Counted from the first letter of the stretch, positions 871 through 52,170 are shown. The stretch is DNA of 64,000 bases from a virus (IMGVR_UViG_3300049009_000811:1-64000), one strand, 5' to 3'. Made by a program: numbers and translations. The notes: generated from the sequence alone by a model not told the origin.

Positions 871-1017
871 GCGTATTTCCGTTTTCCCGTAGAATAATCC
901 CTGGGACACGGAAATCTTTTGCCGTACGCTTCGAATGACTATAGGGTGAAGCCGTTCGCTGGAGAACTGGCACCCGATGGTCGCGTGAACCGTAATCCGA
1001 AACAAGGAGAATGAAAG

Positions 1018-1857
1018 ATGGCTATCCGAAAGAAGAAGCTGACCAACGCCGACAACCTCACCGGTGACGTGACCGGTATATGGGGGAACGCGGGGAACAT
1101 CACGGGAGAGTGCGGCATCTCCCTCGGCAAGGTTCTCGACATCCCGACCGGCGACGTGTCCGCGATCACGGGCGACGTTTCCGAGATATACAACGACGTG
1201 AGCAGGATCAGGGGCGACGTGTCCGGGATATGGGGGGACGCGGGTAAGATCAGGGGCGACGTGACGAAGCTCAAGGGGAACGTGTCCGGGCTCAAGGGCG
1301 ACATCAGCAATATCGAGGGCGACGTGTCCCGTGGAGACTATCTCAGGGGCGACGTGACGAAGCTCAGGGGCGACGTGTCCGGGATCAGTGGCGTAGCGAG
1401 CAAGATCGAGGGTGACGTGGGCGGTCTCAGGGGCGACGTGTCCTGGATCAGGGGCGACGTGTCCGGGATCATCGGGCATGTCGGCATCAAGGGTGACGTG
1501 TCCGGTCTATATGGCGACGTGTCCGGGATCCATGGCGACGTCACGAACATCGGTGGCGACGTGTCCGGTCTATATGGCGACGTGACGAAGCTCAGGGGGC
1601 GCGTGAGTCGCCTGTACGGCAACGTGAACGGTCTGACCGGGGAAGTTGGCGACCTGTCCGGATGCGTGGACGACATCACCGGGGACGCGACTTTCATGTG
1701 GGGCGACGTGACGGGTCTCAAGGGCGACCTGACCGAAGCGGTGAAGGAACACGAGAAGATCAGGAATGACGGTCGGAAGATACTGAACGTCGACACGCTG
1801 CTGGGGGAGGGCTTTCTCTACCTGTCCGGCGTGAAGCAGAGGACCATCTGCCGGTAG
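1018..1857 (+). CDS. GDV heptapeptide-repeat protein, paralogue 1
   Basis: Motif A and SD upstream; KKKLTNADNLTGDV cap followed by many GDV[ST]x[IL]x repeats. Confidence 0.85.
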   Translation: MAIRKKKLTNADNLTGDVTGIWGNAGNITGECGISLGKVLDIPTGDVSAITGDVSEIYNDVSRIRGDVSGIWGDAGKIRGDVTKLKGNVSGLKGDISNIEGDVSRGDYLRGDVTKLRGDVSGISGVASKIEGDVGGLRGDVSWIRGDVSGIIGHVGIKGDVSGLYGDVSGIHGDVTNIGGDVSGLYGDVTKLRGRVSRLYGNVNGLTGEVGDLSGCVDDITGDATFMWGDVTGLKGDLTEAVKEHEKIRNDGRKILNVDTLLGEGFLYLSGVKQRTICR

Positions 1858-1918
1858 AGCCGTTCGGACCGGTCCCGGAACCCCATAGCCGTGTGAACGG
1901 TGAACGAGAAGGAGAAAC

Positions 1919-2110
1919 ATGTCTGATTCTGATCTGGACAAGGAACTGCTGGCGAGCATGCTGAGGCACGCGGCGAAGGACATCAGCGACACGATGGGCG
2001 ACGGCGGACCCCTCACCGGCGACCAGGTGGAGGAGGTCGCGCGAATGTTCGTCATACACCTGGCTGACTACAACTGCGAGATGGGGAAGGTGAGGGACAT
2101 ACTGGCTTGA
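1919..2110 (+). CDS. hypothetical protein
   Basis: Motif A, AAGGAG SD; stop TGA abuts next motif A. Confidence 0.75.
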   Translation: MSDSDLDKELLASMLRHAAKDISDTMGDGGPLTGDQVEEVARMFVIHLADYNCEMGKVRDILA

Positions 2111-2165
2111 GCCGTTCGGCTCGGTCACGGAACCCCAAGGTCGTAACCTAACAATGGAGGACGAG

Positions 2166-2447
2166 ATGAGCGACAAGTATTTCGGTGGCGGCGGCAATGG
2201 CTTTTCCGTAACCTACACGGACCTCAAGGTCGAGGGCATGGAGCTTTCGCTCCGGATGTGCTCCGGCGGCGTGAGCGTCACGGCGCGCGAGGGCGGCGAA
2301 GAGAGGACGAGCGAGGTGTTGCCGTGGGGCACGCTGGACGGTCTGCGGGACGCCGGGGGTTACGTCCGCGGGTTCGCGCTCGGGTTCAGCCGGCGGTTCC
2401 GCGCCATGCGAGCCGTTCGGGTCGCGATCGGAACCCTGCATTCGTAA
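2166..2447 (+). CDS. hypothetical protein (C-terminus reads through motif A)
   Basis: GGAGG SD; last codons encoded by the motif A copy at 2412. Confidence 0.7.
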   Translation: MSDKYFGGGGNGFSVTYTDLKVEGMELSLRMCSGGVSVTAREGGEERTSEVLPWGTLDGLRDAGGYVRGFALGFSRRFRAMRAVRVAIGTLHS

Positions 2448-2477
2448 CATTACATCACTTCAAAAAGGAGACTGACG

Positions 2478-2981
2478 ATGGGATACACGCATTACTGGAG
2501 ATTCGACAGGAACGTGTCGGCTTTCCCCGAGAGGAAGAAGGGTTTCGCCCTGGCTGGCGAGACGATACGGAAGGTCATCGCGCTTTCCGGGGTCGGGATA
2601 CACGGCTGGGACGGGCACGGCGATCCGGAGGTGTCGGAGACGCTGATCTCGCTCAACGGGTGCGGCGACACCGGCGAGGACCACGAGTCGTTCGTGGTCG
2701 AGCTCAACGAGAGGGTGTACGAGGACGAGGGGATGCGCAAGTTCCAGAGCCTGCGACCCGGTTTCGGTTTCTGCAAGACGGCGCGGAAGCATTACGACCT
2801 GGTGGTGTGCTGCTCGCTGATAGCGCTGAGCGAGAACATCGAGGGGTTCAAGGTAAGCTCCGACGGCGAGGAAGGCGACTGGTCCGAGGCGTTCGAGTTC
2901 TACGCGGAGAAGGTGAATCCCGAATTCGACTGGAAGGCGTGGACCAGGGAACACATAGGAAGCTGCGCGGAAAGCGATTGA
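2478..2981 (+). CDS. conserved phage hypothetical protein
   Basis: MGYTHYW start and FCKTARKHYD motif; motif A and SD upstream. Confidence 0.8.
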   Translation: MGYTHYWRFDRNVSAFPERKKGFALAGETIRKVIALSGVGIHGWDGHGDPEVSETLISLNGCGDTGEDHESFVVELNERVYEDEGMRKFQSLRPGFGFCKTARKHYDLVVCCSLIALSENIEGFKVSSDGEEGDWSEAFEFYAEKVNPEFDWKAWTREHIGSCAESD

Positions 2982-3076
2982 TTTCATCGGGTCCGGGGCG
3001 AACGGGCATGTCGAGCCGTTCGTTCCGGGTCTGGCACCCTACGGTCGTAACTTAACTTTCAAAAGGAGAACTGGAA

Positions 3077-5431
3077 ATGAAGATTGACAATTTCGGTGGC
3101 GGGGAAATAGGCAGGAGCGACAACCTTGGTGGCGAGACAAGCTTCACCATCGAGAACTCGCCCTTCGCGTTCAAGATACTTTCGGAGTCGCTGTACAGCC
3201 ACAAGATCCAGTCGGTGATCCGGGAATTGAGCACGAACGCGGCTGACGAGCATGTAAGCTCCGGCAAGGGCGACACCCCTTTCGACGTCCACATACCGAC
3301 GGGTTTCGAGCCTTACTTCTCGATCCGCGACTACGGCGCCGGTCTGTCCGAGGCGGACGCGACCACGTTGTACACCACCTTCTTCAAGTCGACGAAGCGA
3401 AACGACAACGCGGTGACGGGATGCCTGGGGCTCGGCTCCAAGTCACCGTTCGCCGTGACCGACAGCTTCACCATCGAGAGTTTCAACGGCGGGTTCAGGA
3501 CGGTCTACACCTGCTTCAAGGACGAGAACTTCTTCCCGAAGCTGGTCGTCCTCGAGAGGGGCGAGAGTTCCGAGCCTACCGGCGTGCGGATACAGTTCCC
3601 CGTGTCCGGATCCCACTGGGACTGGAAGTACGAGGCGGCGCGCGTCTACAAGTTCTTCGCGGTCAAGCCGAACCTCAATTTCGAGATATCCGGCACGGTC
3701 CTCCCCGCCCCGCTCCTCCGCGGCAAGGGATGGGCGATGTACGAGGACATGCACGAGAGTTACGCGGTGATGGGCAACGTAGCCTACCCCATAGACTTCT
3801 CGGCGTTCAAGAGCGACGACGAGCTCCAGAAGGACATCATCGGCGACTTCCGCGGCATGACCGGTTTCGTTTTCGAGTTCCCGCTGGGCGCGGTCAGCTT
3901 CGATCCCTCCAGGGAACGCCTCACCTACAACGTGGCGACCAAGGACGCGATATTCGCCGCCCTGGTGGCGCTCCGCGAGGAGTTCAAGCGGTCCATCGAG
4001 TCTTCGGTCTCCGAGGCGTCCAACCTGTTCGAGGCTCGGATGAAATACGCCAAGGTGACGAACGACCTCCTCAAGCATTTCGACAAGCGTCGGAAGAACG
4101 GCATCGGCTGGATGATCTCCGACATGGTATGCAAGTGGAACGGTCGGGACCTGTTCCCCACGACCTTGGGGCACGTGGTCTCGCTGGCGTCGGTCAGCGG
4201 CGGGGTGATGCACGCCTCGAAGTCCCCGCGTCGCCAGGCGGTCAACATCAACGTGTTCCCCGACATCTCCTTCGACTTCGACCGACCGACCGACATATAC
4301 GTCATCGGCAAGAAGACGAAGAGCGTGCGACGCAGGGCGAGGATGAAGGTCCTCGAGAACAACGATTCCATAATGCTGGTCAACCACGAGGCGGCGGACG
4401 CCGTGGCTCAGGTATTGGGCGCGGACGACGCCAGCGTGTTCAAGTCGGCGGACGACCTTCCCCAGGTGCCGCAGGGCGTTTCCCCCAGTTCCTCGCGGAG
4501 CAGGGTGGTGGCTACCGACCTCGACCGCAGCGGTCGGTCGTTCAACCTGTACGACCTCAACGCGGTCGATAAGGCGCAGCTGTCCGACCTCGAGGGCGAG
4601 GACGCGATGTACGTCATACGGAACAACGACAGCCTCGAGCTGGAGTCGAGCGTCGACTGGGGCTTGCCCGAACTGCAGGGTACGAACTACAGGTACCTCA
4701 CGAAGACCACCTTCCACCAGATGCTGCACATAGCGGACAAGGCTGGTTTCGCCATGCCGAAGACTTTGGTCATACTGAACAGGAGTACAGCCGCTTCGGT
4801 GCGGATCGCCGACAGGGGTTTCCCGAACATCGTGACGGAGGTGATCGAATTCTTCTCCGCGCATCTGAGCGACAAGGGTCTCGCCGAACTGATGGAGGAT
4901 TCCCGCGTGGAGTACTCCTACGTTGACGGCGAAGGCGTCTCCGACTGGGAGGTCAACGATTCGGCTGCCCGCAACATGGACAGGCTTCTGTCGTTGGTCG
5001 GCAAGCTGGAGGTTTCCAACTACCTCACGGGCACCGACGCCGAGCCCAACCCCGCCAGGGAGTTCGCCGATTTCCGGGAACGCGGCACGAAGGAAGAGTC
5101 CACCGTCAGTTCGCGGATCATGGAACTCAACGTCCTCGACGGCGACCTCATGACGAAGAGGAAGCTGTTCCAGACCGCCACCGACCCGCACTGCAAAAAC
5201 GTGGTGGACGACCTGCGCGGCTTGCTCAACCGCAAGGTGGAGACCAACGCCCACCGCAAGTTCGGTTTCGTCGCGGCTAACAAGGACACGGTCACGGCGG
5301 CGCTCAACCACCTGCATTCGGCTGGACTGCTGGAAGGTCTCCATGTCAGGGAGTTGCCGGTCGCCGAGTTCAACATCATCAGCCCTTCGGGGATGATGAC
5401 CGGCGGGAACCCGAATTCCCGTTGGCGGTAA
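3077..5431 (+). CDS. rIIA: rIIA-like protein with N-terminal GHKL/HATPase domain
   Basis: LYSHKIQSVIRELSTNAAD, IRDYGAGLS, GCLGLGSKSPFA, PSRERLTY motifs typical of T4 rIIA; rIIB-like gene nearby. Confidence 0.85.
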   Translation: MKIDNFGGGEIGRSDNLGGETSFTIENSPFAFKILSESLYSHKIQSVIRELSTNAADEHVSSGKGDTPFDVHIPTGFEPYFSIRDYGAGLSEADATTLYTTFFKSTKRNDNAVTGCLGLGSKSPFAVTDSFTIESFNGGFRTVYTCFKDENFFPKLVVLERGESSEPTGVRIQFPVSGSHWDWKYEAARVYKFFAVKPNLNFEISGTVLPAPLLRGKGWAMYEDMHESYAVMGNVAYPIDFSAFKSDDELQKDIIGDFRGMTGFVFEFPLGAVSFDPSRERLTYNVATKDAIFAALVALREEFKRSIESSVSEASNLFEARMKYAKVTNDLLKHFDKRRKNGIGWMISDMVCKWNGRDLFPTTLGHVVSLASVSGGVMHASKSPRRQAVNINVFPDISFDFDRPTDIYVIGKKTKSVRRRARMKVLENNDSIMLVNHEAADAVAQVLGADDASVFKSADDLPQVPQGVSPSSSRSRVVATDLDRSGRSFNLYDLNAVDKAQLSDLEGEDAMYVIRNNDSLELESSVDWGLPELQGTNYRYLTKTTFHQMLHIADKAGFAMPKTLVILNRSTAASVRIADRGFPNIVTEVIEFFSAHLSDKGLAELMEDSRVEYSYVDGEGVSDWEVNDSAARNMDRLLSLVGKLEVSNYLTGTDAEPNPAREFADFRERGTKEESTVSSRIMELNVLDGDLMTKRKLFQTATDPHCKNVVDDLRGLLNRKVETNAHRKFGFVAANKDTVTAALNHLHSAGLLEGLHVRELPVAEFNIISPSGMMTGGNPNSRWR

Positions 5432-7814: not shown

Positions 7815-7839
7815 CCGAGCCCGTCGTTTCGGATCAATG

Positions 7840-9190: not shown

Positions 9191-9259
9191 ACAGCCGTTC
9201 GTCCGGGGTCTGGCACCCGATGGTCGTAACTTACTTTCAACTCAAAGGGAGAACCGAAG

Positions 9260-10345
9260 ATGGCTACTGGCGAAAAGAAGAAGAAACCGGTCAAGAAGAA
9301 GAAACTGATCAACGCTGGCAACCTCACTGGAGACCTTTCCGGTATCTGGGGCGACGCCAAGCACATCGAGGGCAATGCGTCCAACATCAAGGGCGACGTT
9401 TCCAAACTCTGCTCTTGGGATGAGAATCTCGCCCCGAACACTGATAAAAACCGCATCGAAATGTGTCTAGAAGATCGAGACAACGGACGTAAGAGAGACG
9501 TGTCCGAGCTCAGCGGAGACGTTTCAGAGATCATCGGACTTTTTGCTACCAGCCTCACCGGCGACGTGTCCGGGATCAGTGGGTGTGCGTCCGAACTTAG
9601 GGGCGACGTGTCCGGGATCATCGGCGACCCAATAAACATCTGGGGCGATGTGTCTGGTATCTGGGGCGATGTGTCCGATCTCAGCGGAGATGTGTCCGAT
9701 ATCAGCGGAGATGTGTCCGATATCAGCGGCGACGTGGACGAGATCAGCGGCGACTTGACCGGGATCAGCGGCGACGTGTCCGGTCTCAGCGGCGACGTGG
9801 ACGAGATCACGGGCGACGTGTCCGGTCTCAGCGGCGACGTGGACGAGATCACGGGCGACGTGTCAGGTCTCATGGGCGACGTAACGAACATCAGCGGCGA
9901 CGTGACGAACATCAATGGCGACGTGAACAGCTGCTTGTATGGCGACGCGCGCGGGATCGAGGGTGACGTCACGAACATCAGGGGCGACGTGTCCGGTCTA
10001 GGTGGCGACGTTACGAATCTCAGGGGAGACGTGACCGGGATCGAGGGCTACTTGGATGGTTTCATGGGAGACGTGTCCGGTCTCAGCGGCAACGTTTACG
10101 GTCTTACTGGAGACGTGTCTGGTCTAAAGGGAAAATTGAAACCATTCGATGGCGACGTGTCCGAGGTCAGCGGTTGGAAGCCGGAGCAACTTAAAATTTA
10201 CGTAGCAGAAATGGTCAACCATGGCTGGATGCGTGTCAGTTCGGAGCAAGGCAATCCGGGTGGCACAGGAAAACCAGAGAAGAAGTCCAAGGAGTCTCGC
10301 CTGGTCGAGCTGCTCGAAGAGATCAAGGCGTTGTTCGCCGAGTAG
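9260..10345 (+). CDS. GDV heptapeptide-repeat protein, paralogue 2
   Basis: Lys-rich N-terminus, LINAGNLTGDLSGIWGDAK cap, repeats, tail ESRLVELLEEIKALFAE. Confidence 0.88.
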   Translation: MATGEKKKKPVKKKKLINAGNLTGDLSGIWGDAKHIEGNASNIKGDVSKLCSWDENLAPNTDKNRIEMCLEDRDNGRKRDVSELSGDVSEIIGLFATSLTGDVSGISGCASELRGDVSGIIGDPINIWGDVSGIWGDVSDLSGDVSDISGDVSDISGDVDEISGDLTGISGDVSGLSGDVDEITGDVSGLSGDVDEITGDVSGLMGDVTNISGDVTNINGDVNSCLYGDARGIEGDVTNIRGDVSGLGGDVTNLRGDVTGIEGYLDGFMGDVSGLSGNVYGLTGDVSGLKGKLKPFDGDVSEVSGWKPEQLKIYVAEMVNHGWMRVSSEQGNPGGTGKPEKKSKESRLVELLEEIKALFAE

Positions 10346-10410
10346 CCGTTCGCAACCGGTCTGGCACCCGATGGTCGTAACTTACTTTCAACTCAAAGGG
10401 AGAACCGAAG

Positions 10411-11589
10411 ATGGCTACTGGCGAAAAGAAGAAGAAACCGGTCAAGAAGAAATTGGTCAAGAAGAAGAAACTGATCAACGCTGGCAACCTCACTGGAGAC
10501 CTTTCCAGTATATGGGGCGACGCTGGTAAGCTCAAGGGCAGAACTGGAGTTCTCGCATGCCATTCTGCATGCGCCGATTCAAAAGTGTCCAGAATCAGTG
10601 GCGACGTAACGAACATCAAGGGCGATCCGACAAACATCAGCGGCGATGTCACGAAGATCAGGGGCGACGTTTCTGGCATCAAGGGCGATGTCACGAAGAT
10701 CAAGGGCGACGTTTCTGGCATCAAGGGCGATGTCACGAAGATCAAGGGCGACGTGACTGGCATCAAGGGCAATGTGCGCTGGCTCGGGGGCGATGTAGAA
10801 GACTTGGTTCGTCAAGGCGAGCTGAAGAAAATAAATCATAAGCTAAAAAAGGAACTTTTTAATGTCGGCGAAGAAGGAGAACTTACCGGAGACCTTTCCG
10901 GGATCTGGGGCGACGCCAAGAACATCAGGGGCGACGCTTCCAACATCAGGGGCGACGTGACTGGGATCGAGGGAGACCAGCCTTATCACGGCGAAAAAGC
11001 TTATGTAACGGATCTAAGGGGCGATGTAACGAACATAAGCGGCTTCATCGGAGGCATCACGGGGGATGTCACGAATCTTAGGGGGGATGTGACTGGTATC
11101 TCCACGTTCATGTGGGAAAGAGGCGAAGATTACCATACATGGGGCGAAGCCGACATGTCTGATCTCAGCGGCAATGTGAATGGAATCTATGGAGATGTGA
11201 CATATCAATTTGGTGACACGAATGGAAGCAGCAAATTTTATGGATATAGGGGCGAATGGTCCAATCTCAGCGGCGATGTAGAAGATCTGGTTCGACAAGG
11301 TCGGCTAAACTATTTTTCGAAGCATGAGCTAAAAGAGATGTATAAGATCGGTCGTGTCGCGTCAGCGACTAAGGCTGTCAAGGCGAAGGAAAATCCCGAG
11401 ACAAACCTGGTCGTTGGCAAAGTGTTCACGAATTTCGTTTTGTCTGAGAACTCTACTGGCGCTATGGTCAAAGCTTCTTATCTGGTTTGCCAAGGCAATC
11501 CCGGTGGCACAGGCAAACCAGATAAGAAGTCCAAGGAGTCTCGCCTGGTCGAGCTGCTCGAAGAGATCAAGGCGTTGTTCGCCGAGTAG
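10411..11589 (+). CDS. GDV heptapeptide-repeat protein, paralogue 3 (two repeat domains)
   Basis: Same leader, N- and C-terminus as 9260; two GDVEDLVRQG caps. Confidence 0.88.
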   Translation: MATGEKKKKPVKKKLVKKKKLINAGNLTGDLSSIWGDAGKLKGRTGVLACHSACADSKVSRISGDVTNIKGDPTNISGDVTKIRGDVSGIKGDVTKIKGDVSGIKGDVTKIKGDVTGIKGNVRWLGGDVEDLVRQGELKKINHKLKKELFNVGEEGELTGDLSGIWGDAKNIRGDASNIRGDVTGIEGDQPYHGEKAYVTDLRGDVTNISGFIGGITGDVTNLRGDVTGISTFMWERGEDYHTWGEADMSDLSGNVNGIYGDVTYQFGDTNGSSKFYGYRGEWSNLSGDVEDLVRQGRLNYFSKHELKEMYKIGRVASATKAVKAKENPETNLVVGKVFTNFVLSENSTGAMVKASYLVCQGNPGGTGKPDKKSKESRLVELLEEIKALFAE

Positions 11590-11654
11590 CCGTTCGTCCG
11601 GGGTCTGGCACCCGATGGTCGTAACTTACTTTCAACTCAAAGGGAGAACCGAAG

Positions 11655-11927
11655 ATGGCTAAGAAAGAGATGTTCTGTTCGTTGGGCGAGGCATACAAGG
11701 AGAACGGCGATTTCATCCCGAAGGGGACGCCAGTGCGGGTCATCACCTGGAGTCCGGACGACGAGAACCTGATGCGGGTCGAGGCTGTAGCCTACGTCTA
11801 CGCGGACAGTTCCGGCGACGAGACGCAGTCGTTCGTTGGTGGGAAGATATTCATCGACGTCAATCCTGAGTCGCTGACCTTCATGATGCTGGGCAACGAG
11901 GGCGACCTGGTAAAACAGGAATACTAG
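11655..11927 (+). CDS. hypothetical protein
   Basis: Leader identical to those of 9260/10411 up to ATGGCTA. Confidence 0.75.
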   Translation: MAKKEMFCSLGEAYKENGDFIPKGTPVRVITWSPDDENLMRVEAVAYVYADSSGDETQSFVGGKIFIDVNPESLTFMMLGNEGDLVKQEY

Positions 11928-13134: not shown

Positions 13135-13890
13135 ATGGCTACTTGTAAGAAGAAGAATAAACTGATAAACACGGGCTTGCTTACCGGAAACCTGGATGGG
13201 ATTTTCGGCGACGCCAAGAACATCAAGGGCAACGTCTCGAATATCAAGGGCGACGTGACGAAACTCAGCGGCGACGTGTCTGGTCTCGAGGGCGACGTGA
13301 CGAAACTCAGCGGCGACGCGACCGACGTCCTCGGAGACGTGAGCAACATCAGCGGAAACTTGTCGAAGATCTGGGGCGAGGCTTTCGGTCTTATTGGCGA
13401 TGTCTCGAACATCTATGGACAAGCGTCCAGCTACGTATGGGGAGACGTCACGGATCTCGAGGGCGACATTTCCAGGATAGAGGGAGACGTTACGGGTCTC
13501 AAGGGCGAACTCTTCGGCATCTGGGGAGTCGTCACGAACATCAGGGGAAAGCTGCGGACGCACGGAAAGTGTCCTGAGTACGGCGAGTTACCAGGTCTCA
13601 GCGGATACGTGACGAACATCAGCGGAAACGTGTCCAACATCTGGGGCTACGTGGGCGGTCTCGACGGTCTAAGGGGCGACGTTTCCAAGATCGAGGGCGA
13701 CGTGTCCGAGATCAGGGGCGACGTTTCTCATATCAGCGGCGACGTGTTCGGTCTCAGCGGACACGTGTCCAATATCTATGGCGACGTGTCCGGTATCCAT
13801 GGCGACGTCACCGGTCTCAAGGGCACCCCGAGCGGTCTCTTTGGCAAAGTCAAAAAACTGGTTAAAAACGGCTGGCTGGAACGATGCTAG
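13135..13890 (+). CDS. GDV heptapeptide-repeat protein, paralogue 4
   Basis: MATCKKKNKLINTGLLTGNL cap and repeats; stop TAG overlaps motif A. Confidence 0.85.
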   Translation: MATCKKKNKLINTGLLTGNLDGIFGDAKNIKGNVSNIKGDVTKLSGDVSGLEGDVTKLSGDATDVLGDVSNISGNLSKIWGEAFGLIGDVSNIYGQASSYVWGDVTDLEGDISRIEGDVTGLKGELFGIWGVVTNIRGKLRTHGKCPEYGELPGLSGYVTNISGNVSNIWGYVGGLDGLRGDVSKIEGDVSEIRGDVSHISGDVFGLSGHVSNIYGDVSGIHGDVTGLKGTPSGLFGKVKKLVKNGWLERC

Positions 13891-14955: not shown

Positions 14956-15075
14956 TTCCTTTCCGAAAACGGAAATCTTTCAGGGCTGCGAGCGAATAAC
15001 TCGTAGCCCTGATTTTTTACGGCCGTTCGTTCCAAGTCCGGCACCCCACATCCATACAAACAACGAGGAGAAGCC

Positions 15076-21798: not shown

Positions 21799-21921
21799 GC
21801 CCTATTTAGTGGTCAGTCGCTGTTTTCTGGAGGTCAGTACACCGATTTCCGGACTTAGCCGTTCGCCTTGATCCCGGCACCCTACCGCCGTAACATGAAT
21901 TTACCTTTACGGAGAAACGAT

Positions 21922-22377
21922 ATGATTGCGACCAAGAAGAACAAGGTGGTGACCAGGGGGAAGTCCTCCGTGTGGGACGTGCGAATCCTTTGCACCGAAT
22001 ATGACGGCGGGGCGCTGACGGACGTGTTCGACGGCTGCGTCGAAGGACCGCACACCGGAGTGTTCGATTTCAGGACCGAGCAAGTAAAGAGGAAGAGAAA
22101 GTCGTGGAGCAAGGAAACCGTCAGGCTGTTCGGGGAGTTCGACTTCTACGAGCACAAGTTCCTCCTGATCAAGTCAGACTATCGCCAATTTTTCAGCTGC
22201 GACGAGTACAAAATGTCGGGAGTCGAGTGGCTCCTGTGGGCAGCCAACCAGAACAAGATGCACGGTCACGCCGACAGCTTCTTTCGGAGCATCATAGAGA
22301 CGGAGGAGAGACGCCTGCGTCTCGTCACGCAGAAAACCAAGATCGACACGGACTGGGACCACTGGTATTCTTTGTAA
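21922..22377 (+). CDS. hypothetical protein
   Basis: Motif A and GGAG SD. Confidence 0.7.
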   Translation: MIATKKNKVVTRGKSSVWDVRILCTEYDGGALTDVFDGCVEGPHTGVFDFRTEQVKRKRKSWSKETVRLFGEFDFYEHKFLLIKSDYRQFFSCDEYKMSGVEWLLWAANQNKMHGHADSFFRSIIETEERRLRLVTQKTKIDTDWDHWYSL

Positions 22378-22448
22378 CCAGCCGTTCGTCCTGATCACGG
22401 CACCCTACCGCCGTGACATGACTTCAACTTCAAAAAAGGAGACTCAGA

Positions 22449-25897: not shown

Positions 25898-26010
25898 GAC
25901 GAAGCCCCGAAACGCCACCTGTTTTCGACGATCTCCTTGAAACCGACTTCTGATGTTATTTAGCCAGAGATGTGCGAAAAATGGCACATGGCTTGGCGAG
26001 CCGTTCACCG
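25898..26010. repeat. divergent-junction element (second copy at 47938-48050)
   Basis: GACGAAGCCCCGAAACGCCACCTGTTTTCGACGATC ... GGCACATG.C.TGGCGAGCCGTTCAC shared by both copies. Confidence 0.85.
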
Positions 26011-26125
26011 AAGGTCTGGCACCCGATGGTTGTGTGGTGTGCGACTCAAACCTTCCGAGCCGTTCGCAGACGACCCGGAACCCGATGGTTGTGTGGCGGG
26101 TAACTTAACTCAAGGAGACCGAGAC

Positions 26126-26446: not shown

Positions 26447-26519
26447 GTCGCCGAGCCGTTCGCCGAAGGTCTGGAACCCGATGGTTGTGTGGCAAGTAAC
26501 TTAAAAAAAGGAGAACGAA

Positions 26520-26900
26520 ATGGGCATGGGATATTCAGCTTGTAAGGTTGTAGCAATTAAGTACGAGTACATCAAAGAGCTTTGTCCCAAAGAGATTGGG
26601 GCAATCGAAGCTCATGAAGAATTTGAAGGTTGGGGTAAATTGGCTTTGTATATGGTGTACGAATTTGAAGATGCGGAAGCTTTTGCTCCACTTGTCGACA
26701 ATTTGATCAACGCATTTAAGACTGCCACAGGGCTTGGCATGTCCTTGACTCAGTACGATTACGATAGTGGCAGCAGATATGACGAAGTGGAACACAAAGA
26801 AGGTTGCATATTTGAAGTTCTGGATGTTTATGAATTGACACCAAAAGCCAAAAGACTTAAGAAAAAGCTTCACTTTGGAAGCTATGTGGTGTTCGGTTAA
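26520..26900 (+). CDS. hypothetical protein (AT-rich)
   Basis: Motif A and SD; followed by terminator and motif B. Confidence 0.75.
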   Translation: MGMGYSACKVVAIKYEYIKELCPKEIGAIEAHEEFEGWGKLALYMVYEFEDAEAFAPLVDNLINAFKTATGLGMSLTQYDYDSGSRYDEVEHKEGCIFEVLDVYELTPKAKRLKKKLHFGSYVVFG

Positions 26901-27049: not shown

Positions 27050-27388
27050 ATGATAGAACTGAAACAAGGCTACGAATTGATCGACATATCCGTCAAGTGC
27101 CAGTCCCAGTCCTGGTACTGGCAAGAGATACGCGACTACGGTGGCGTCAAGCTGCGAGCCAACATCCAGCGCAACGCCTACGATGACCAGTCGTACGCCA
27201 ACATCGAGCAGTTCTCCGACCAGAAGGGCTGGCTCGTCGTCGCCTCGCATCCGATCACGAAATATTCCGTCAGCAAGATGTCGTATGTCTGGGAGATGAC
27301 GGACGACAGGCGAGATCTGTTCAGGGATTGCGCCGACCGGCTTTTCAAGCTTGGCGAGGCGTTCATCGGCTTCGACGGGAAAAGCTAG
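27050..27388 (+). CDS. hypothetical protein
   Basis: Motif A and SD; RNAYDDQSYA; ends GKS-stop in motif A. Confidence 0.75.
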   Translation: MIELKQGYELIDISVKCQSQSWYWQEIRDYGGVKLRANIQRNAYDDQSYANIEQFSDQKGWLVVASHPITKYSVSKMSYVWEMTDDRRDLFRDCADRLFKLGEAFIGFDGKS

Positions 27389-27454
27389 CCGTTCGCCTGG
27401 AGTTCGGAACCCTACCATCGTAACTTGACTCAACCCTAACAGGAGAATCGAAAT

Positions 27455-27742
27455 ATGTCCGCTAAAAGCAAAGCCGAAAAACATGCCGACACGCTTGCTG
27501 GCATGATAGACGGCAAAGATGACGATCTGGCTAAGACGCTTGAACCCATCAGAAAGTTCTTGTTGAGCCTTGATAAAGCCGAAAAAACAAAGTCGGCTTC
27601 CGACTCCAAGCTCGTGGCGGCGGCGCCAGAGTTGCTGGACGCGTGCAGGTATCTTCTGGCAAACGCAAAAGCAGAAGGATGGAGCGAGTTTATGCTTGGC
27701 GACGCACGTTCTGCCATCGCCAAGGCGACGAGGAAAAGCTAG
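27455..27742 (+). CDS. AAPELL/AIAKAT-family phage protein
   Basis: LVAAAPELLDAC...ARSAIAKATRKS. Confidence 0.75.
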   Translation: MSAKSKAEKHADTLAGMIDGKDDDLAKTLEPIRKFLLSLDKAEKTKSASDSKLVAAAPELLDACRYLLANAKAEGWSEFMLGDARSAIAKATRKS

Positions 27743-27805
27743 CCGTTCGCCTTCCGTCTGGCACCCTACCGTCGTGTGGCGAACAAACTTAAAAAGGAGA
27801 ACGAG

Positions 27806-32367: not shown

Positions 32368-32371
32368 TCAG

Positions 32372-37320: not shown

Positions 37321-37593
37321 TTCTCAATCCCCTTTTTAAAGTTTCCCACCACACGATGATGGGGTTCCAGGTCTTTGGCGAACGGCTCGCCATTAGTCAT
37401 TCGTTTCAAGTCCAAAAAGATTTCTCTTTTTTTTCCTTATTTCGTTTCCCACAATTGTAGGGTGCCAGATCCGGCACGAACGGCTCGCCTGGTCCGGAGG
37501 TCAGTACACCACATTCCCCCAGGTCGGCCGTTCGCCGAAAACCTGGCACCCTACCATCGTGTGGTGGAAACAATAAAACAAGGAGACTGAGAC

Positions 37594-39525: not shown

Positions 39526-39585
39526 CCGTTCCCCGGCAACCCGGAACCCTATGGTCGCAACCTAACTTCAACAGGAGAATGAAAG

Positions 39586-39762
39586 ATGAGTCATACGCCA
39601 GAGAAAATAAATTCCGAGTTGCTCAACATGCTCATGAGAATGGTCGATGAATGTTCTTATTCCCATGTCACCCCCGAGGGCGTTGAAATCGCCAGCAGAC
39701 CGTGCCCAATCACGATGCAGCATGCCCGCGAAGCCATCGCAAAGGCGACAGGAAAAAGCTAG
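39586..39762 (+). CDS. small AIAKAT-family protein
   Basis: MSHTP...ELL...AREAIAKATGKS. Confidence 0.7.
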   Translation: MSHTPEKINSELLNMLMRMVDECSYSHVTPEGVEIASRPCPITMQHAREAIAKATGKS

Positions 39763-39834
39763 CCGTTCGCCCGACATCTGGAACCCTATGGTCGTGTGGT
39801 GGAAACGAAATTATAACCTATGAGGATTCATGCC

Positions 39835-40236
39835 ATGAAAAGAACAAGAACAGTAGAAATTGAAGATGTTTTAGATTCATGTGTAGAAACAGCAATCGAT
39901 AAAGTTAAGGATTTACTGGAAGAATACATAAAAGAAAACGATTCCGGTCCTTTGCCTGATATCAATAACGACTTGGATTACTCTGGCTCCGTTCACGAAA
40001 TAATCGATAGGTCTGTACCAGATTATTACAAGGTCATAGACGATACTTGGTATCTTTATAAAGAAGATTTGATCGAAGCTTACGAAAATTCCGGAATGGG
40101 CGACAATCCCATGGATGGCAACGGAACAGTTGCGATATATTGCTATATCGAACAAAAAGTAGGCGAATGGTACCGAAAAGAAGCGCAAGACATATTTGAT
40201 GAAATAGTCAGTAAGAAGAAGAAAAAGAAAAGCTAG
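39835..40236 (+). CDS. Ocr-like (T7 gp0.3-like) acidic anti-restriction candidate
   Basis: VHEIIDRSVPDYYKVI..EAYENSGM..AIY aligns by eye to recalled T7 Ocr IHMAADNAVPHYYADI..LEFEDSGL..RIY. Confidence 0.6.
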   Translation: MKRTRTVEIEDVLDSCVETAIDKVKDLLEEYIKENDSGPLPDINNDLDYSGSVHEIIDRSVPDYYKVIDDTWYLYKEDLIEAYENSGMGDNPMDGNGTVAIYCYIEQKVGEWYRKEAQDIFDEIVSKKKKKKS

Positions 40237-40294
40237 CCGTTCCCCGACATCTGGAACCCTACAAACGTAACTCAACACTAACAGGAGAAGAATA

Positions 40295-40585
40295 ATGACC
40301 GATAAACCAAAGTGGGACTTAGAAGAAGTTCCTTTTGAAAACAACGATCCTGCGGGTGGATGGTATCTCCACTTTGATACAGAGGCAGATCATGAAGTTC
40401 TATACATGAGTAAAAGCAATGTATCAGAAGAACAAGCCAATCTAATAGCAGCGTCGCCAGAGTTGCTGGAAACGCTGAAAGACATTTCTGTTTGGTTGAC
40501 AGCACCTTCTACGGACAAAGCAACCATCGATCATTGGAAGCAAAAGGTTTCAACAGCCATCGCAAAGGCGACAGGAAAAAGCTAG
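40295..40585 (+). CDS. AAPELL/AIAKAT-family phage protein
   Basis: ANLIAASPELLETLK...AIAKATGKS. Confidence 0.75.
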   Translation: MTDKPKWDLEEVPFENNDPAGGWYLHFDTEADHEVLYMSKSNVSEEQANLIAASPELLETLKDISVWLTAPSTDKATIDHWKQKVSTAIAKATGKS

Positions 40586-41032: not shown

Positions 41033-41926
41033 ATGATCAAGGTAAACAAGATTTTGCGGAACCCGAACATCACCGGCGACAGGTCAAACATCACCGGCGA
41101 TCCGATAAACATCAGGGGCGACATCACGAACATCAGGGGCGACGTAACGAAACTCAGGGGCGACGTAACGAACATCAGCGGCGACGTGACCCTAATCAAC
41201 CGGTGTGGGACCATTTACGGGATCGAGGGCGACGTCTCGGGAATCAGCGGCGACGTGACGAAAATCAAGGGCGACGTCTCGAATATCAGGGGCGACGTGA
41301 CCAAGATCAGTGGAAAGGTGGACGGGGTCAAGCCACACCCTGGGGGCGACAGCCATCAAACACGTCCAGGTCTCATGGGCGACGTGTCCAAGATCAGCGG
41401 CGACATATCCAATCTCTACGGCGACGTGTCCGGCATCTGGGGGAATGTTTCCGGGATCATAGGCGACGTGTCCTATATCAAGGGCGACGTGACCGATTTC
41501 TGCGGTGACGTGAACGGTCAATATCAACGTGTCACTGAGGGAGACATAAAAGACCTGGCGACGAACTATGGAAAGGTTAAAAAACTGATCAATTCCGGCA
41601 ATCTTGTTGGAAAATATCTTGAAATCAATGGCGATGCAAAGAACATCTGGGGCAACGCCTATAGAATCAGCGGCGACGTCTCGAATATCTGTGGTGACAT
41701 CAACAAGATCCATGGCTACGTCTCGGGAATCAGCGGCGACGTAACGAACATCGAGGGCGACGTCTCGAGAATCAGGGGCGACGTCTCGAAGCTCAGCGGC
41801 GACTTGTCCGGGATCAAGGGCGACGTGACCGGGATCGAGGGCGATTTCTCGTTCCTGACGGGAGAACAACGCTCGAAGGGAATCTCGATCTCTATAATCC
41901 TAGACATGTTGGAAAAAGCTGGCTAA
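41033..41926 (+). CDS. GDV heptapeptide-repeat protein, paralogue 7
   Basis: GDV[ST]xIx repeats; internal KKLINSGNL cap. Confidence 0.85.
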   Translation: MIKVNKILRNPNITGDRSNITGDPINIRGDITNIRGDVTKLRGDVTNISGDVTLINRCGTIYGIEGDVSGISGDVTKIKGDVSNIRGDVTKISGKVDGVKPHPGGDSHQTRPGLMGDVSKISGDISNLYGDVSGIWGNVSGIIGDVSYIKGDVTDFCGDVNGQYQRVTEGDIKDLATNYGKVKKLINSGNLVGKYLEINGDAKNIWGNAYRISGDVSNICGDINKIHGYVSGISGDVTNIEGDVSRIRGDVSKLSGDLSGIKGDVTGIEGDFSFLTGEQRSKGISISIILDMLEKAG

Positions 41927-42032
41927 CCACGCGGAAACCTGGAAGCCCTGGCGTGACTGCCGGGGCTCCAGCCGTTCCCAGTCAACCCGGAACCCAATCA
42001 TTGTGGTGGCAAGCAACAAACTATAAAGGAGA

Positions 42033-47017: not shown

Positions 47018-47168
47018 TTCCGATCCCCTTGATTTTAGTTTCCCGCCACACGACAATGGGGTTCCAGGTCGCCAGCGAACGGCTCGACCGAAGCCCTACT
47101 GGGACCGGAAGTCAGTACACCGGTCCCAGTCATAAAAAAAGCCTAGGTCGATGACCTAGGCTTCCATT

Positions 47169-47339
47169 CTAGTCGCGGCGGCAATATTCGAGGCGGACAG
47201 CCTCGATGGCAGCCGTGAAGGCTTCCTGGTTCCCGCTCGCCGCCTTGACCGCCGCCATCAAGGCGACATAAGGGTTGCTGGAAGCCTCGAGGGCGTCCAG
47301 GCGGGAGTTTACACCGACAAAATATTCGGCTTCGGTCAT
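47169..47339 (-). CDS. small protein, N-terminus shared with 49972
   Basis: MTEAEYFVGVNSRLDALEA; minus motif A and AGGAG SD. Confidence 0.7.
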   Translation of the reverse strand: MTEAEYFVGVNSRLDALEASSNPYVALMAAVKAASGNQEAFTAAIEAVRLEYCRRD

Positions 47340-47496
47340 GTTTCGATCTCCTGAAAGAGTTTAAGTTCCACACCACACAACCATGGGGTTCCAGGTCGAC
47401 CACGAACGGCTCAGCCGAAGCCCCACTGGGACCGGAAGTCAGTACACCGGTTCCAGCCATGAGAAAAGCCCAGGTCATTGACCTGGGCTTTTCTGG

Positions 47497-47820
47497 TTAT
47501 CCAACCACGCAGACCTCAAGGTTCTCTTCCAGCAATTGCCGTACCATGTCCCCGTTGTTATCCAAGGCAATCCGGTGAACACTTGCCAAATCCTTGTTCT
47601 GATATCGCCTGCATGGGATGACGCTGACGATTTTGTAGAAGTCCTTGTTAAGACGGTGAGTCTCCCAAATCCCCTCTATCTTGCAAACACTAACACTTGT
47701 CTTGTATGCCTTGTCGACATGCCTTGTCGACATTTTAACCCTGGTATTACCACTTGTCCACGATTCGGTTATTGTTCTTTTTACCGAATCTTCAAACTTG
47801 TTGTTCTCTACAATCATCAT
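47497..47820 (-). CDS. hypothetical protein (AT-rich)
   Basis: Minus motif A and SD. Confidence 0.7.
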   Translation of the reverse strand: MMIVENNKFEDSVKRTITESWTSGNTRVKMSTRHVDKAYKTSVSVCKIEGIWETHRLNKDFYKIVSVIPCRRYQNKDLASVHRIALDNNGDMVRQLLEENLEVCVVG

Positions 47821-48865: not shown

Positions 48866-49007
48866 GACTCAGCCCAGGCTAAACGCCCGGGCTTTCCCTT
48901 TTCCCGGAAACCGGTGTACTGACCTCCGGAGCCGGACCCCTGGCGAGCCGTTCGTGAACTACCCGGAACCCTACAAACGTAACTCAACCCCAACCGGAGA
49001 ATCGAAG

Positions 49008-49598
49008 ATGTCTACTTGCGAGAAGAAACTGGTAAATGCAGGAAACCTCACCGGAGACCTTTCCGGGATATGGGGCGACGCGGGCAAGCGATATGATTGC
49101 GATATTACCGAACACCTTTCCGGTCTCACGGGCGACGCGACTAATATCAGGGGCGACGTGTCCAAAATCCGTGGCGACGTTACCGGGCTCAGGGGCGACG
49201 TGTCCGGGATCTGGGGATATGTGTCCGCGATCACGGGCGACGTGTCAAATCTCAGTGGCGACGCGTCCTTGTTCAGCCGGTGGGGATACGTGTCCAACCT
49301 CTACGGCGACGTGTCCGGGATCAGGGGATATGTGCACAATCTCAAGGGCGACGTTACCGGGATCAGGGGCGACGTGTCTGGTCTCCGTGGCGATGTCACC
49401 GGTCTCAAGGGCGGTGTGTACGGGCTCCGTGGCGATGTCACTGGGATCGAGGGAAGCGTGTACTGGCTCCGTGGCGACGTCGAAGACCTGGTTCTCCAGG
49501 GAAAGCTGAAGCGTACGGGCAAACATGAACCCGAGAAGACCAAGGAATCTCGACTGGTCGAGAAGCCAGACGATATCAAGACCTTGTTCGGCAAGTAA
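49008..49598 (+). CDS. GDV heptapeptide-repeat protein, paralogue 8
   Basis: MSTCEKKLVNAGNLTGDL cap, GDVEDLVLQGKLKR cap, ESRLVE..DIKTLFGK tail. Confidence 0.88.
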   Translation: MSTCEKKLVNAGNLTGDLSGIWGDAGKRYDCDITEHLSGLTGDATNIRGDVSKIRGDVTGLRGDVSGIWGYVSAITGDVSNLSGDASLFSRWGYVSNLYGDVSGIRGYVHNLKGDVTGIRGDVSGLRGDVTGLKGGVYGLRGDVTGIEGSVYWLRGDVEDLVLQGKLKRTGKHEPEKTKESRLVEKPDDIKTLFGK

Positions 49599-49679
49599 AA
49601 ATCAGAAGCCGTTCCCAATCAACCCGGAACCCTACCGTCGTGTGGCGGAAACGAAAAAAACAAACAAGGAGAATGGAAA

Positions 49680-49907: not shown

Positions 49908-49971
49908 CCCTGCGTCCTAGCCGTTCCCAATCAACCTGGAATCCCATAACTTAAACCAAGGAGACCGAAAC

Positions 49972-50154
49972 ATGAATGAAGCCGAATATTTCATCGCGGT
50001 AAACGCCCGCCTGGACGCCCTCGAGGCTGCCCGGGAAGAAGAACCCAAAGCCGAGAAGCACTGGAAGGACCAGATAACCTGGTCCTGCGGCACGGAAGGC
50101 TGCTACGGAAGCGTGTCCGGGATCAACATGCCCTGCAGCAACTGCGGGGGCTAG
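49972..50154 (+). CDS. small Zn-binding protein
   Basis: MNEAEYF...CGTEGC..CSNCGG. Confidence 0.7.
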   Translation: MNEAEYFIAVNARLDALEAAREEEPKAEKHWKDQITWSCGTEGCYGSVSGINMPCSNCGG

Positions 50155-50319
50155 GACGCAGCCCTGGTTTCAAAGCCAGGGCTTGCCTTTCCCGGCAAAC
50201 CGGTATACTGACCACCGGCGCAACCTGTCCCGGACATCCCGAGCCTGCGTCCGGAAGCCGTTCCCAATCAACCCGGAACCCCATCACCGTGTGGTGGGAA
50301 ACTTAAACCTTCAAGGAGA

Positions 50320-50547
50320 ATGAAAATGATCGAAGCAAAAGAAACCGAACGCCATGGCGGCGCCTACGACAGGGGTCGCGCCGACTCCTACTACAACCGC
50401 CCCCGGCTGCCCCATATGTTCGCCGGGGCGACATACGCCAGCCCGCAGGTCAACAAAAATGACATGACCGCGGAGCAGGTGGCGGATTACAACGCCGGCT
50501 ACAACTGGAACGAGGAGTTCGGGGACAAGAAGGACTGGGGGGGATAG
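50320..50547 (+). CDS. conserved phage small protein
   Basis: RHGGAYDRGRADSYY.R...PH...MT.EQ...Y.AGY..NEE.GDKKDW. Confidence 0.8.
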   Translation: MKMIEAKETERHGGAYDRGRADSYYNRPRLPHMFAGATYASPQVNKNDMTAEQVADYNAGYNWNEEFGDKKDWGG

Positions 50548-50588
50548 AACCCCGGCTTCCCGCGGGAACCGGTGTACTGACCTCCGGA

Positions 50589-51460
50589 GCCAGTCCGGGT
50601 CGACCAGTCTAACCAGTATCACCAGTCTCATCGGGTCGTCCCGAGCCTGCGTCCCATCTTTCCGTGAACGCCCGTACATCGAACCGTGTCCGGGTCGACC
50701 GGTCTAACCAGTATCACCAGTCTCATCGGCGCGTCCCGGCGTCCCGGTTCGTCCAGTGAAGCCAGTAGATCCAGTCTCCCCGGCAGAACCGTCCGGGTCG
50801 TCCCGAGCCTGCGTCCCATCTTTCTGTGAACGCCCGTACATCGAACCGTGTCCGGGTCGACCGGTCTAGCCAGTATCACCAGTCTCACCGGCGTCCCGGC
50901 TTTCCAGTATCGCCAGTGAAGCCAGTATGACCAGTAGCGCCAGTAGAGCCTGCGTCCAGTGACTCCAGTGGAACCAGTGGAACCTGCCGGAACCGTGTCC
51001 CGAGCCACCGCCCGGTGGCTCCCGTCTGCCCGGCTCGCCGGGGAAGCCCCGAGACGCCACCGGGTTTCGACGATCCCACGCGAATCGACCGAGAACGCCG
51101 CCTCCGGGAAACCGAGCTGGAAACGGCGACGCAGCCTGGCGTCGGTCCAGTAGCGCCAGTAGATCCGGCAGGTCCGACCCGGCACGGGCGTTGTCCGGGT
51201 CGTTCCAGCCCGGTAAAACCTGTAGAACCGGTAGAGCCAGTCGCTCCATCAGGACCTGTCCGGGTCGTTCCCGAGCCTGCGTCCCGCAGTGATATTGAAC
51301 GCCCGTACATCAAACCGTGTCCGGGTCGTCCGGTCCCGGCATGACCTGTAGAACCGGTAGAGCCAGTGGAACCTGTCCGGGTCAGTCCCGAGCCCGCGTC
51401 CCTGGTCGCCCCGGTCCGACCAGCCGGGTATGACCTGTAGAACCGCGGTTGCCCGCGTCC
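50589..51460. repeat. repetitive tract: 94-bp direct repeat plus 9-bp-period CCAGT/CCGGT runs
   Basis: 50632-50725 nearly identical to 50794-50887, partial third copy near 51260-51330; CCAGTnnnn runs at ~50903-50985. Confidence 0.8.
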
Positions 51461-51532
51461 CGAAGCCGTTCCCGGGCAACCCGGCACCCTACCATCGTGT
51501 GGCGGGAAACGAAAACTCAAGGAGAATGAAAC

Positions 51533-51799
51533 ATGGATGCCAAGAAAATGAGCGACGCGAACCTGAAGGCTGCGTACTGGGCTGCTTACAACAAGAAGGA
51601 AGCCGCCCACCTGGCGTGGCGCACGGAGACCGGCTTCGGTCGGGTAGCCCCGGACCTCGAGGCTGCGTTCCGGGCAGCGTGCGCGGAGTACGAGCCGCTC
51701 CTCGACGAGTGGGACGCCCGGTTCTCGTCCGAAGAGGACGACGTACGCGCCCGCGAGGCGATCGCGGACCGGTACGAGGTCAACTGGAGCGAGGAATAG
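51533..51799 (+). CDS. hypothetical protein
   Basis: Motif A and AAGGAG SD. Confidence 0.75.
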   Translation: MDAKKMSDANLKAAYWAAYNKKEAAHLAWRTETGFGRVAPDLEAAFRAACAEYEPLLDEWDARFSSEEDDVRAREAIADRYEVNWSEE

Positions 51800-52170
51800 A
51801 CCGGTAGCCCCGACCACGGGGCTTCACCTTTACCCCGGAAACCGGTGTACTGACCTCCGGAGCCCGGCACCCATGTCGCCGACCGGGTCCGGACCCTTCG
51901 GGCTGCGCGGACCGTGGCGGTCATTCCCCCTATATATATTGTATCAGGCGAGACGTCCGCCGGGAACGGGCGAGCCGAAGGGTCCAGCCGTTCGCCGGAT
52001 ACCCGGCACCCCATGGTCACGCGGACCGGGGGATCAAGCCCGGTCCGCGTGAAGCTACGCGTAAACATACTCAACGAGCCGGGCTAGTCGCCCGGCTTAA
52101 CTTGGACCGGCGACCGGTGTACTGACCTCCGGAGCCGGGCTACGTCTTACAGGTCGGATGGGGGGATAGC

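Follow-up and report, generated by a model that had tools for sequence, protein, structure and literature searches.

Phage-encoded factors of the sigma-70 family redirect the host core RNA polymerase to private promoters that have their own -35 and -10 elements. In SPO1, host sigma A is followed by gp28, which serves the middle promoters, and then by gp33/34 at the late promoters, and gp55 of T4 is likewise a phage sigma factor. In T4-type phages (RB49/phi1, T4/PST and KVP40/nt-1) a second kind of system has been described, the promoter-early stem-loops (PeSLs), elements of ~100 bp that combine an early promoter of the host sigma-70 type with a GC stem-loop (Arbiol et al. 2010, PMC2839356; Comeau et al. 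2014, PMC4122927). Here we describe motif A, a 38-nt element present in 67 copies within the first 64 kb of IMGVR_UViG_3300049009_000811, a 115,719-bp linear virus record of IMG/VR (G000 hereafter). These 64,000 nucleotides are called the window, and coordinates without a prefix are counted from its first base. G000 belongs to a huge, uncultured freshwater phage, and how such phages express and renew their long stretches of small unknown genes is poorly understood; the motif A array is a clean example of such a stretch. We propose, with reasonable though not high confidence, that motif A is a phage-specific promoter that also provides shared homology for cassette exchange, and that its reader is most likely the host core RNA polymerase carrying a phage sigma factor.

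Motif A has a fixed geometry and precedes most genes of the array

A search of both strands of the window with AGCCGTTC-N11-GGMACCC, allowing up to two mismatches, returned 67 matches, all within 950-52,011, and shuffled sequence gave a mean of 0.42 matches and a maximum of 2. One match (14746-14771, minus strand) is probably due to chance, as it has two mismatches, lies antisense within an open reading frame (ORF) and has neither a Shine-Dalgarno sequence nor an ATG. Together with a variant that has a 10-nt spacer (40235..40271, plus strand, ahead of the gene 40295-40585), the credible copies again number 67, of which 66 have the N11 spacer (53 on the plus and 13 on the minus strand). The core is exact in 59 of these 66, and YGT stands exactly 6 nt past ACCC in 54. 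The initial annotation had counted about 67 copies of one element with fixed geometry, and this description is borne out.

The position matrix built from the copies has a sharp 5' edge, with no information before the first A, and about 38 conserved positions that amount to ~43 bits. Its consensus, AGCCGTTC-G-C-c-nnnn-R-Y-C-Y-GG-M-ACCC-n-A-Y-n-r-T-C-G-T-R, comprises Box 1 (AGCCGTTCGC, positions 0-9), Box 2 (YGGMACCC, positions 18-25) and Box 3 (nAYnnTCGT, positions 26-34), with a purine at position 35 in 63 of the 67 copies. Two 3' sub-types are found past position 34, CGTGTGG in 28 copies and CGTAAC in 16, and the sequence then continues with an A-rich leader and AAGGAGA up to the start codon. 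The copy at 26454..26522 (plus strand) is a typical unit, in which Box 1, the variable spacer, Box 2, Box 3, the purine, the leader and AAGGAGA lead to an ATG at 26520. Boxes 2 and 3 without Box 1 were found nowhere in the 115.7-kb contig.

All the copies are oriented toward a gene except the last one, in agreement with the orientation noticed at first. For 62 of the 65 copies linked to a gene, the distance from the first base of the motif to the start codon is 48-74 nt, mostly 60-70 nt. Furthermore, 21 copies touch or overlap the stop codon of the preceding gene, and there are a few upstream genes that read into the motif. The last copy (51986..52060, plus strand) is followed by a hairpin with an 11-bp stem (CGCGGACCGGG...CCCGGTCCGCG) without Shine-Dalgarno sequence or gene, and may give a short transcript or be a dead end.

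Motif A behaves as a DNA site and is likely a promoter

The orientation of the motif, its fixed distance to the start codon, the order terminator-then-motif, the divergent pairs and the tandem copies together make it likely that motif A is a promoter. A strong hairpin or terminator is present 0-70 nt ahead of at least 7 of the 67 copies. At 14980..15058 (plus strand), a strong hairpin with a T run (14980-15012) is followed after 9 nt by the motif at 15021 and then by an AAA+ gene (15076-16152), and hairpins at 0-70 nt also precede the copies at 7934, 26990, 29912, 31458, 36782 (minus) and 37853. Four pairs of motifs are divergent, 40-148 nt apart. The closest of them (37448..37563; 37485 on the minus and 37526 on the plus strand, first bases 40 nt apart) has in its gap a copy of another repeat, motif B (37494-37512, minus), and leaves no space for other promoters upstream of either motif A copy. 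Two tandem copies, 59 nt apart (25999..26095, plus strand), stand ahead of one gene (26126-26446), and a related strain has three copies at this locus.

This strain, called strain R here (Ga0209500_10000060), is a 101.8-kb metagenome contig in which this array is present with 90-96% identity. Among 27 pairs of motifs from the two strains that are orthologous but not identical, Box 1 shows 0.7% mismatches versus 5-8% in the flanks, the spacer and the leader, and positions 0-7, 19-20, 22-25, 27, 33 and 35 are invariant. Hence, purifying selection acts on the boxes of motif A.

The tight distance to the start codon and the constant sense orientation could also be those of a signal in the 5' untranslated region, such as a processing site or the site of a translational regulator on polycistronic transcripts with promoters elsewhere. 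Moreover, as 21 copies abut or overlap a stop codon and a few genes read into the motif, read-through transcripts would contain motif A. Nevertheless, we regard an RNA-level signal as quite improbable. We found no covariation within motif A, the highest mutual information being between adjacent columns, a consequence of the two 3' sub-types; the pairing in candidate helices is no more frequent than that of independent columns, the folding energy equals that of shuffles, and Rfam has no family at the motif, its only matches being two tRNAs. These results agree with the first proposal that recognition of DNA by a protein fits the element better than RNA folding. The sharp conserved 5' edge is also as expected for a DNA site, and the terminator-like hairpins directly upstream of several copies, the tandem copies and the divergent pairs, with no other conserved promoter-like sequence between their members, argue in the same direction. 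Finally, sites matching the sigma-70 consensus are scarce in the array (13, 11 and 9 versus 6.5, 7.7 and 6.8 expected) and none of them coincides with motif A, so that there is no alternative set of promoters on which an RNA signal would depend.

The layout of motif A and two sigma genes point to a phage sigma factor as the probable reader

In its geometry, motif A follows the -35/-10 register of the sigma-70 family: CGTTCG (positions 3-8) is separated by 17 bp from nAYnnT (positions 26-31), within the 16-18 bp typical of such promoters. A27, present in 96% of the copies and invariant between orthologs, and T31, present in 75%, occupy the places of the two key bases of a -10 element, A at -11 and T at -7; a G stands two bases past the hexamer, and Box 2 is at the location of an extended -10. 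The initial annotation stated that the motif matches neither sigma-70, sigma-54 nor attC consensus; this is right for the sequence, which differs from all of them, but the layout is that of the sigma-70 family. In a comparison by eye, the spacing or key bases of extracytoplasmic function (ECF) sigma promoters (GGAAC-N16/17-CGT), HrpL, sigma-32 (CCCCATnT) and PafBC-type promoters (block, 8 nt, TAnnnT) do not fit the matrix, and these candidates were rejected.

Neither a sigma-70-family gene nor a homolog of the divergent sigma factor described below was found in the 115.7 kb of G000. Two sigma genes are instead present in G001, a 189-kb viral record that has two tandem copies of motif A and few proteins in common with G000. 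The final 31 bases of G001 are identical to the first 31 of G000, and a locus of strain R (L139) first runs colinear to G001:181,078-189,229 (79-86% identity) before entering G000:1-3820. As this locus bridges both records, G001 is the piece of a relative's genome that adjoins G000 on the left, and the genome of this lineage must be at least ~305 kb. For the same reason we dropped the idea that motif A is common to unrelated phages and therefore read by a host factor. Besides the 67 copies of the array, these 305 kb contain a single motif A at G000:82,986-83,011 (minus strand) and a tandem pair at G001:110,726 and 110,814. Thus, the early observation that there are no copies after ~52,000 is correct for the window and does not extend to the rest of the contig or to the neighbouring segment.

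The first of the two genes (sigma 1, G001:98793-99710, L154:763-1680) encodes a sigma-70-family protein with regions 2 and 4, whose closest solved structures are SigA and HrdB (E = 1e-16, PDB), and is preceded by a host-type promoter, TTGCAA-N17-TAAAAT. The second (sigma 2, G001:110882-111790, L118:1657-2565) is very divergent and lies behind the two tandem copies of motif A. For this protein alone, the searches with Pfam, PDB and hhalign were not significant, and a structure model made from the single sequence was unusable (pLDDT 46.7). An exhaustive profile search gathered a family of 127 representatives, in which 34 of 65 aligned members match Sigma70_r2 and whose profile matches PDB sigma factors with E = 3e-17. 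By this family profile, and not by the single-protein tests, the gene behind the tandem motifs is assigned as a second, divergent sigma factor. In five diverged sigma 2 loci (69-100% protein identity) there are two motif copies each, with Box 1, the N11 spacing and Box 2 unchanged while the spacers drift in sequence. The search for a sigma factor elsewhere in the genome, suggested at the outset, therefore yielded two sigma-70-family genes in the adjoining segment of the relative.

A further element was seen ahead of a distant sigma 2 homolog (~31% identity) in a Logan contig of SRR33541912 with 31% GC (L166:255-300). Its sequence, GTTTCGGCC-N8-TTCACCTTATGTTTGTAG, resembles motif A in its spacing and in Box 3, and may be a diverged dialect of it, although this is a single case.

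Considering these data, we infer the promoter role, the reading sigma factor, the start site and the temporal class as follows. With a sigma-70-family factor encoded by the phage, the core RNA polymerase of the host would contact Box 1 (AGCCGTTC) at about -38 to -31, in the place of the -35 element, and Box 2 (GGMACCC) over -19 to -13, in the extended -10 zone; nAYnnT (positions 26-31) would be the -10 hexamer and CGT the discriminator. Transcription would start at about positions 35-39, leaving a 22-32-nt A-rich leader that contains AAGGAGA. In the putative cascade, a host sigma-70-type promoter would drive phage sigma 1, which would activate the motif A promoters, including those of the sigma 2 gene, and sigma 2 would then read a later class of genes. 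Autoregulation of sigma 2 is an alternative to this cascade. The initial annotation called motif A a phage-specific early promoter; the promoter part has indirect evidence in its favour, but "early" should be revised, because the neighbouring segment of the relative encodes two sigma-70-family factors and a delayed-early or middle class that needs one of the phage's own sigma factors is no less likely.

Several points weigh against this interpretation. The information of motif A (~43 bits, with eight invariant bases in Box 1) is far above that of usual sigma-dependent promoters and nearer to that of promoters of single-subunit phage polymerases, although concerted evolution by recombination could account for such conservation. 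T31 is conserved in only three quarters of the copies. The sigma genes come from the contig of a relative (79-86% nucleotide identity in the overlap) and not from G000, and the sole link between a sigma factor and the motif is the position of the sigma 2 gene behind two copies. Both contigs are incomplete (24% for G000 and 39% for G001 according to CheckV), and another polymerase may be encoded elsewhere. Finally, the promoter role is deduced from sequence.

The high information content, together with the fact that part of the genome is missing and could contain the gene, would also suit a phage polymerase that works without sigma, either single-subunit like that of T7 or multisubunit as in jumbo phages. 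Boxes 2 and 3 would then be a 17-nt core (positions 18-34, followed by the purine found in 63 of 67 copies and invariant between orthologs) and Box 1 the site of an accessory factor. We consider such a polymerase unlikely as the reader of motif A. The known promoters of single-subunit polymerases consist of a single uninterrupted block of about 17-23 bp that ends at a purine start and has no distal box, and Box 1, 10 nt further upstream, does not fit that form. Two sigma genes are present, one of them wired to motif A. PF00940, Rpb2_6 and Rpb1_2 had no credible match in the 305 kb of G000 and G001, a negative of little weight since the control for PF00940 was also silent. GGCACCC...GTAA loosely resembles the Syn5 promoter, ATTGGGCACCCGTAA (PMC3950665), but an insertion of 7 nt breaks the resemblance, which we treat as a coincidence.

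Motif A is a unit of gene gain, loss and exchange between strains

G000 and strain R differ by about two dozen structural changes. The segments 9266-11588 (two genes), 21908-22378, 27421-27732, 39557-40582, 47089-47814 and 48951-49607 are absent from strain R, with the junction in or next to a motif; 28194-28621 and 41036-42026 are replaced, and strain R has extra cassettes at 25877, 37853 and 49919. In another population, a 270-bp insertion is located exactly at the copy 15021. Within five nt of a motif we found 20 of the 70 ends of homology blocks between G000 and strain R, versus 6.3% expected (p ~7e-9), and the upstream and downstream flanks have different best partners in 27 of 60 motif copies of strain R. 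Base-level alignments place the switch of homology at Box 1 or the 5' edge in some junctions, and within the motif or at its 3' end in others, and chimeric motifs occur. In addition, neighbouring copies resemble each other more than pairs taken at random do (0.574 versus 0.475, p<0.0002).

Two one-gene cassettes illustrate these changes. The gene 21922-22377, between the two motifs of 21857..22417 (plus strand), is absent in strain R, and the surviving motif is a chimera of both. In the cassette 27387..27778 (plus strand), the gene 27455-27742 is also absent in strain R, where the left flank matches the copy 27387 up to Box 1 and the sequence from the spacer onward matches the copy 27741. The copies 9193, 10344 and 11588 (9193..11660, plus strand) share an identical motif and leader of ~70 nt, and the paralogous genes 9260-10345 and 10411-11589 between them are missing in two other populations, in which the junction falls within this common repeat.

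The comparison of cassette order with a related contig supports the anticipated role of motif A as a unit by which genes are gained, lost and swapped. In the mechanism that we propose, the repeated motif would provide the homology at which promoter-leader-gene units are deleted, duplicated, inserted or swapped between strains. About one third of the indels are at gene borders without motif and without obvious homology, which is roughly the share of such borders. Motif A is accordingly a proven substrate of recombination and not a proven hotspot.

Since crossovers occur at several positions of the motif, homology-driven exchange is favoured over an integron-like or single-site recombinase. A dedicated capture site, integron-like or driven by a homing endonuclease, in which expression would be secondary, is consistent with the many homology switches at Box 1 or the 5' edge, with a genome rich in HNH endonuclease genes and with cassettes one gene long. 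However, the crossovers cover positions -8 to ~+45, some of them at the 3' edge; there is neither a hairpin nor an attC-like symmetry, each gene has the motif on its 5' side, with a constant spacing to the start codon, and indels also affect borders without motif. No tyrosine or serine recombinase or integrase appeared among the genes examined of this incomplete genome, for which no dedicated recombinase search was run. We consider a dedicated capture site very improbable, and the integron analogy made initially is weak. It is also very unlikely that capture is actively maintained, with Box 1 cut or synapsed by a phage enzyme (an HNH endonuclease or an unrecognised recombinase) and exchange far above background; if this were true, motif A would be a phage counterpart of the integron in which the attachment site doubles as a sigma-specific promoter.

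Genes and repeated elements of the array and its surroundings

The array spans 950..52023 on both strands, and its copies, of 38 nt each, are given by the first base A of AGCCGTTC. On the plus strand they begin at 950, 1858, 2110, 2411, 3014, 5431, 7499, 7934, 8458, 9193, 10344, 11588, 12371, 13889, 15021, 17314, 18912, 21857, 22380, 25999, 26058, 26454, 26990, 27387, 27741, 28184, 28626, 29912, 31458, 32817, 33663, 37526, 37853, 38162, 38540, 39524, 39761, 40235 (N10 spacer), 40584, 40966, 41970, 43881, 44616, 44921, 45939, 48040, 48356, 48590, 48946, 49607, 49919, 50256, 51464 and 51986. On the minus strand, where the first base is the higher coordinate, they begin at 25229, 25585, 25892, 36321, 36782, 37387, 37485, 43271, 43811, 46827, 47084, 47411 and 47891.

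About 100 genes are predicted in the array, with a median of 102 aa, and ~62-65 of them (about two thirds) have their own copy of motif A. Among 101 predicted products, 87 have no paralog within the array. Eight paralogous coiled-coil or heptad-repeat proteins (LPP-like matches, phrog_19577) are scattered through it (1018-1857, 9260-10345, 10411-11589, 13135-13890, 28689-29876, 29974-31422, 41033-41926 and 49008-49598); apart from 13135-13890, each of their genes is preceded at 60-70 nt by a motif copy of its own, and several are at sites of strain indels. The array also contains, besides the AAA+ gene already mentioned (15076-16152, plus strand), which is clamp-loader-like, an rIIA-like gene (3077-5431, plus), an rIIB-like gene (6216/6291-7151, plus), an HNH endonuclease gene (22449-22976) and an ATP-dependent DNA ligase gene (23038-24078). 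Two tRNA genes are within it, tRNA-Met(CAT) at 20203-20274 (plus) and tRNA-Glu(CTC) at 32371-32443 (minus); the stretch 31972-32352, near the latter, is replaced in strain R.

Past the array there are C5-methyltransferases, a baseplate wedge gene and a 3917-aa ORF (G000 84120-95873, L002:120-11873, plus strand) that matches tape-measure families weakly and contains long repeats within its DNA; if it truly is a tape measure protein, an exceptionally long tail is implied. We discarded the possibility that this ORF is an N4-like virion RNA polymerase acting on hairpin promoters, as it matches only tape-measure families in PHROGs and motif A has no hairpin. At 83 kb, the 3' end of a gene that encodes a free-standing protein of 156 aa with an RNA polymerase alpha C-terminal domain (G000 82999-83469, L001:18999-19469, minus; PF03118, E=1e-17) overlaps the isolated copy of motif A. 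The protein is conserved in strain G002 and is a candidate phage transcription accessory factor. The isolated copy heads a zinc-ribbon gene (multi-CxxC, 141 aa) and an S-adenosylmethionine (SAM) lyase family gene (PF23780), together at G000 81952-82940 (L001:17952-18940, minus). By analogy with the SAM lyase of T3, this gene likely has an anti-restriction function and would be expressed before the late genes.

Motif B (CCGGTGTACTGACCTCCGG) has 21 copies in the window versus 0.02 expected, between 805 and 52132, examples being 26949-26967, 38121-38139 and 52114-52132. It is often found between a terminator and motif A, at least 7 copies ending 9-22 nt upstream of the first base of motif A, and three tandem copies on the opposite strand (805..873, minus) mark the left border of the array. 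Motif B may be an upstream site or a second class of promoters. Outside the array, the palindromic TATATAT/ATATATA appears in 9 of 74 upstream regions versus 0.8 expected, usually 20-50 nt before the start codon (window 53323-53362 and 60061; G000 65240, 67916, 77690, 83851 and 107168), and may be another, possibly late, promoter class.

Just left of the array, a hairpin of G/C homopolymers (GGGGTGGGGAAAATCCCCCGCCCC GCCTTGGGGGAAATGCCCC...) is the shared break point of independent assemblies (window 1-31; G001:189199-189229; L139:4460-4580). HNH endonuclease genes form a tandem series left of the array (L139:118-1592; G001:181-186 kb), with more copies in G001 than in strain R, and further HNH genes are located in the window at 22449-22976 and 57641-58114.

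Distribution of motif A in other genomes

Strict motif A (AGCCGTTC-N10-YGGMACCCNAYNNNYGT) had no match when 185,579 species of bacteria and archaea were scanned with one genome per species. Among viral contigs it was found only in a strain fragment of the same phage, and it is present in freshwater metagenome contigs. Among relatives, the motif is present in strain R and in G001. A looser scan of viral contigs gave, among the matches listed, mostly single chance matches. Two other contigs (L143 and L147) were rejected as relatives, as they are bacterial (TonB-type receptor) and their lone match, in conserved coding DNA, is probably due to chance. The reference phage collection gave no match with a 12-kb stretch and the 3917-aa ORF as queries, and a search of viral contigs with the rIIA protein alone recovered no relatives.

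Discussion

The array described in this work offers a well-defined 38-nt signal, natural strain variants with moving cassettes and a testable cascade of two phage sigma factors. If a sigma factor reads motif A, both would constitute a new orthogonal sigma-promoter set, and one temporal class of genes could be annotated from sequence alone in this group of phages.

The PeSLs of T4-type phages resemble motif A in several respects. Both are repeated regulatory elements ahead of small ORFan genes in hyperplastic regions, both are associated with insertion, deletion and replacement of single cassettes between close relatives, with breakpoints at variable points within the element, and rIIA and rIIB are in the same region in both cases. 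The spread of crossovers in PeSLs suggests homologous recombination and not a site-specific enzyme, and the picture is the same for motif A. On the other hand, motif A is 38 nt long and has no TTGACA/TATAAT consensus, and stem-loops are found with a minority of the copies (hairpins upstream of at least 7 of 67, while 21 abut a stop codon). The conservation of motif A is far higher, with 59 exact cores in 66 copies, and its density is 67 copies in 51 kb. In addition, PeSL phages are T4-type, whereas this phage, with its 3917-aa tape-measure-like gene, may not be.

With respect to the cascades of SPO1 and T4, in which the gene of a later sigma factor is under the promoter class of an earlier one, the two sigma genes are so arranged here, as far as gene order and geometry go. 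Motif A differs from those promoters in a third conserved block, GGMACCC, within the spacer. It also recalls sigma-54 promoters, which carry GG at -24 and, ten bases on, GC at -12, as YTGGCAC, the -24 element, is present in 28 of the 67 copies; however, the other 39 have GGAAC and positions 31-32, where the -12 GC would be, are TC. A sigma-54 promoter was therefore rejected, and Sigma54_DBD had no match in G000, nor was a sigma-54 domain seen in G001. The attC sites of integrons are imperfect inverted repeats that fold, lie 3' of the cassette and have one crossover point, whereas motif A has no fold, lies 5' of the genes and has spread crossovers. Unlike the hairpin promoters of N4, it contains no conserved stem by either covariation or stability. 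Repeated promoters acting as recombination linkers, as in the T4-type PeSLs, and phage sigma regulons were thus known already; new are motif A as such, its organisation in three blocks over 38 nt, the dense packing of its copies in the array and the second sigma gene wired to the motif.

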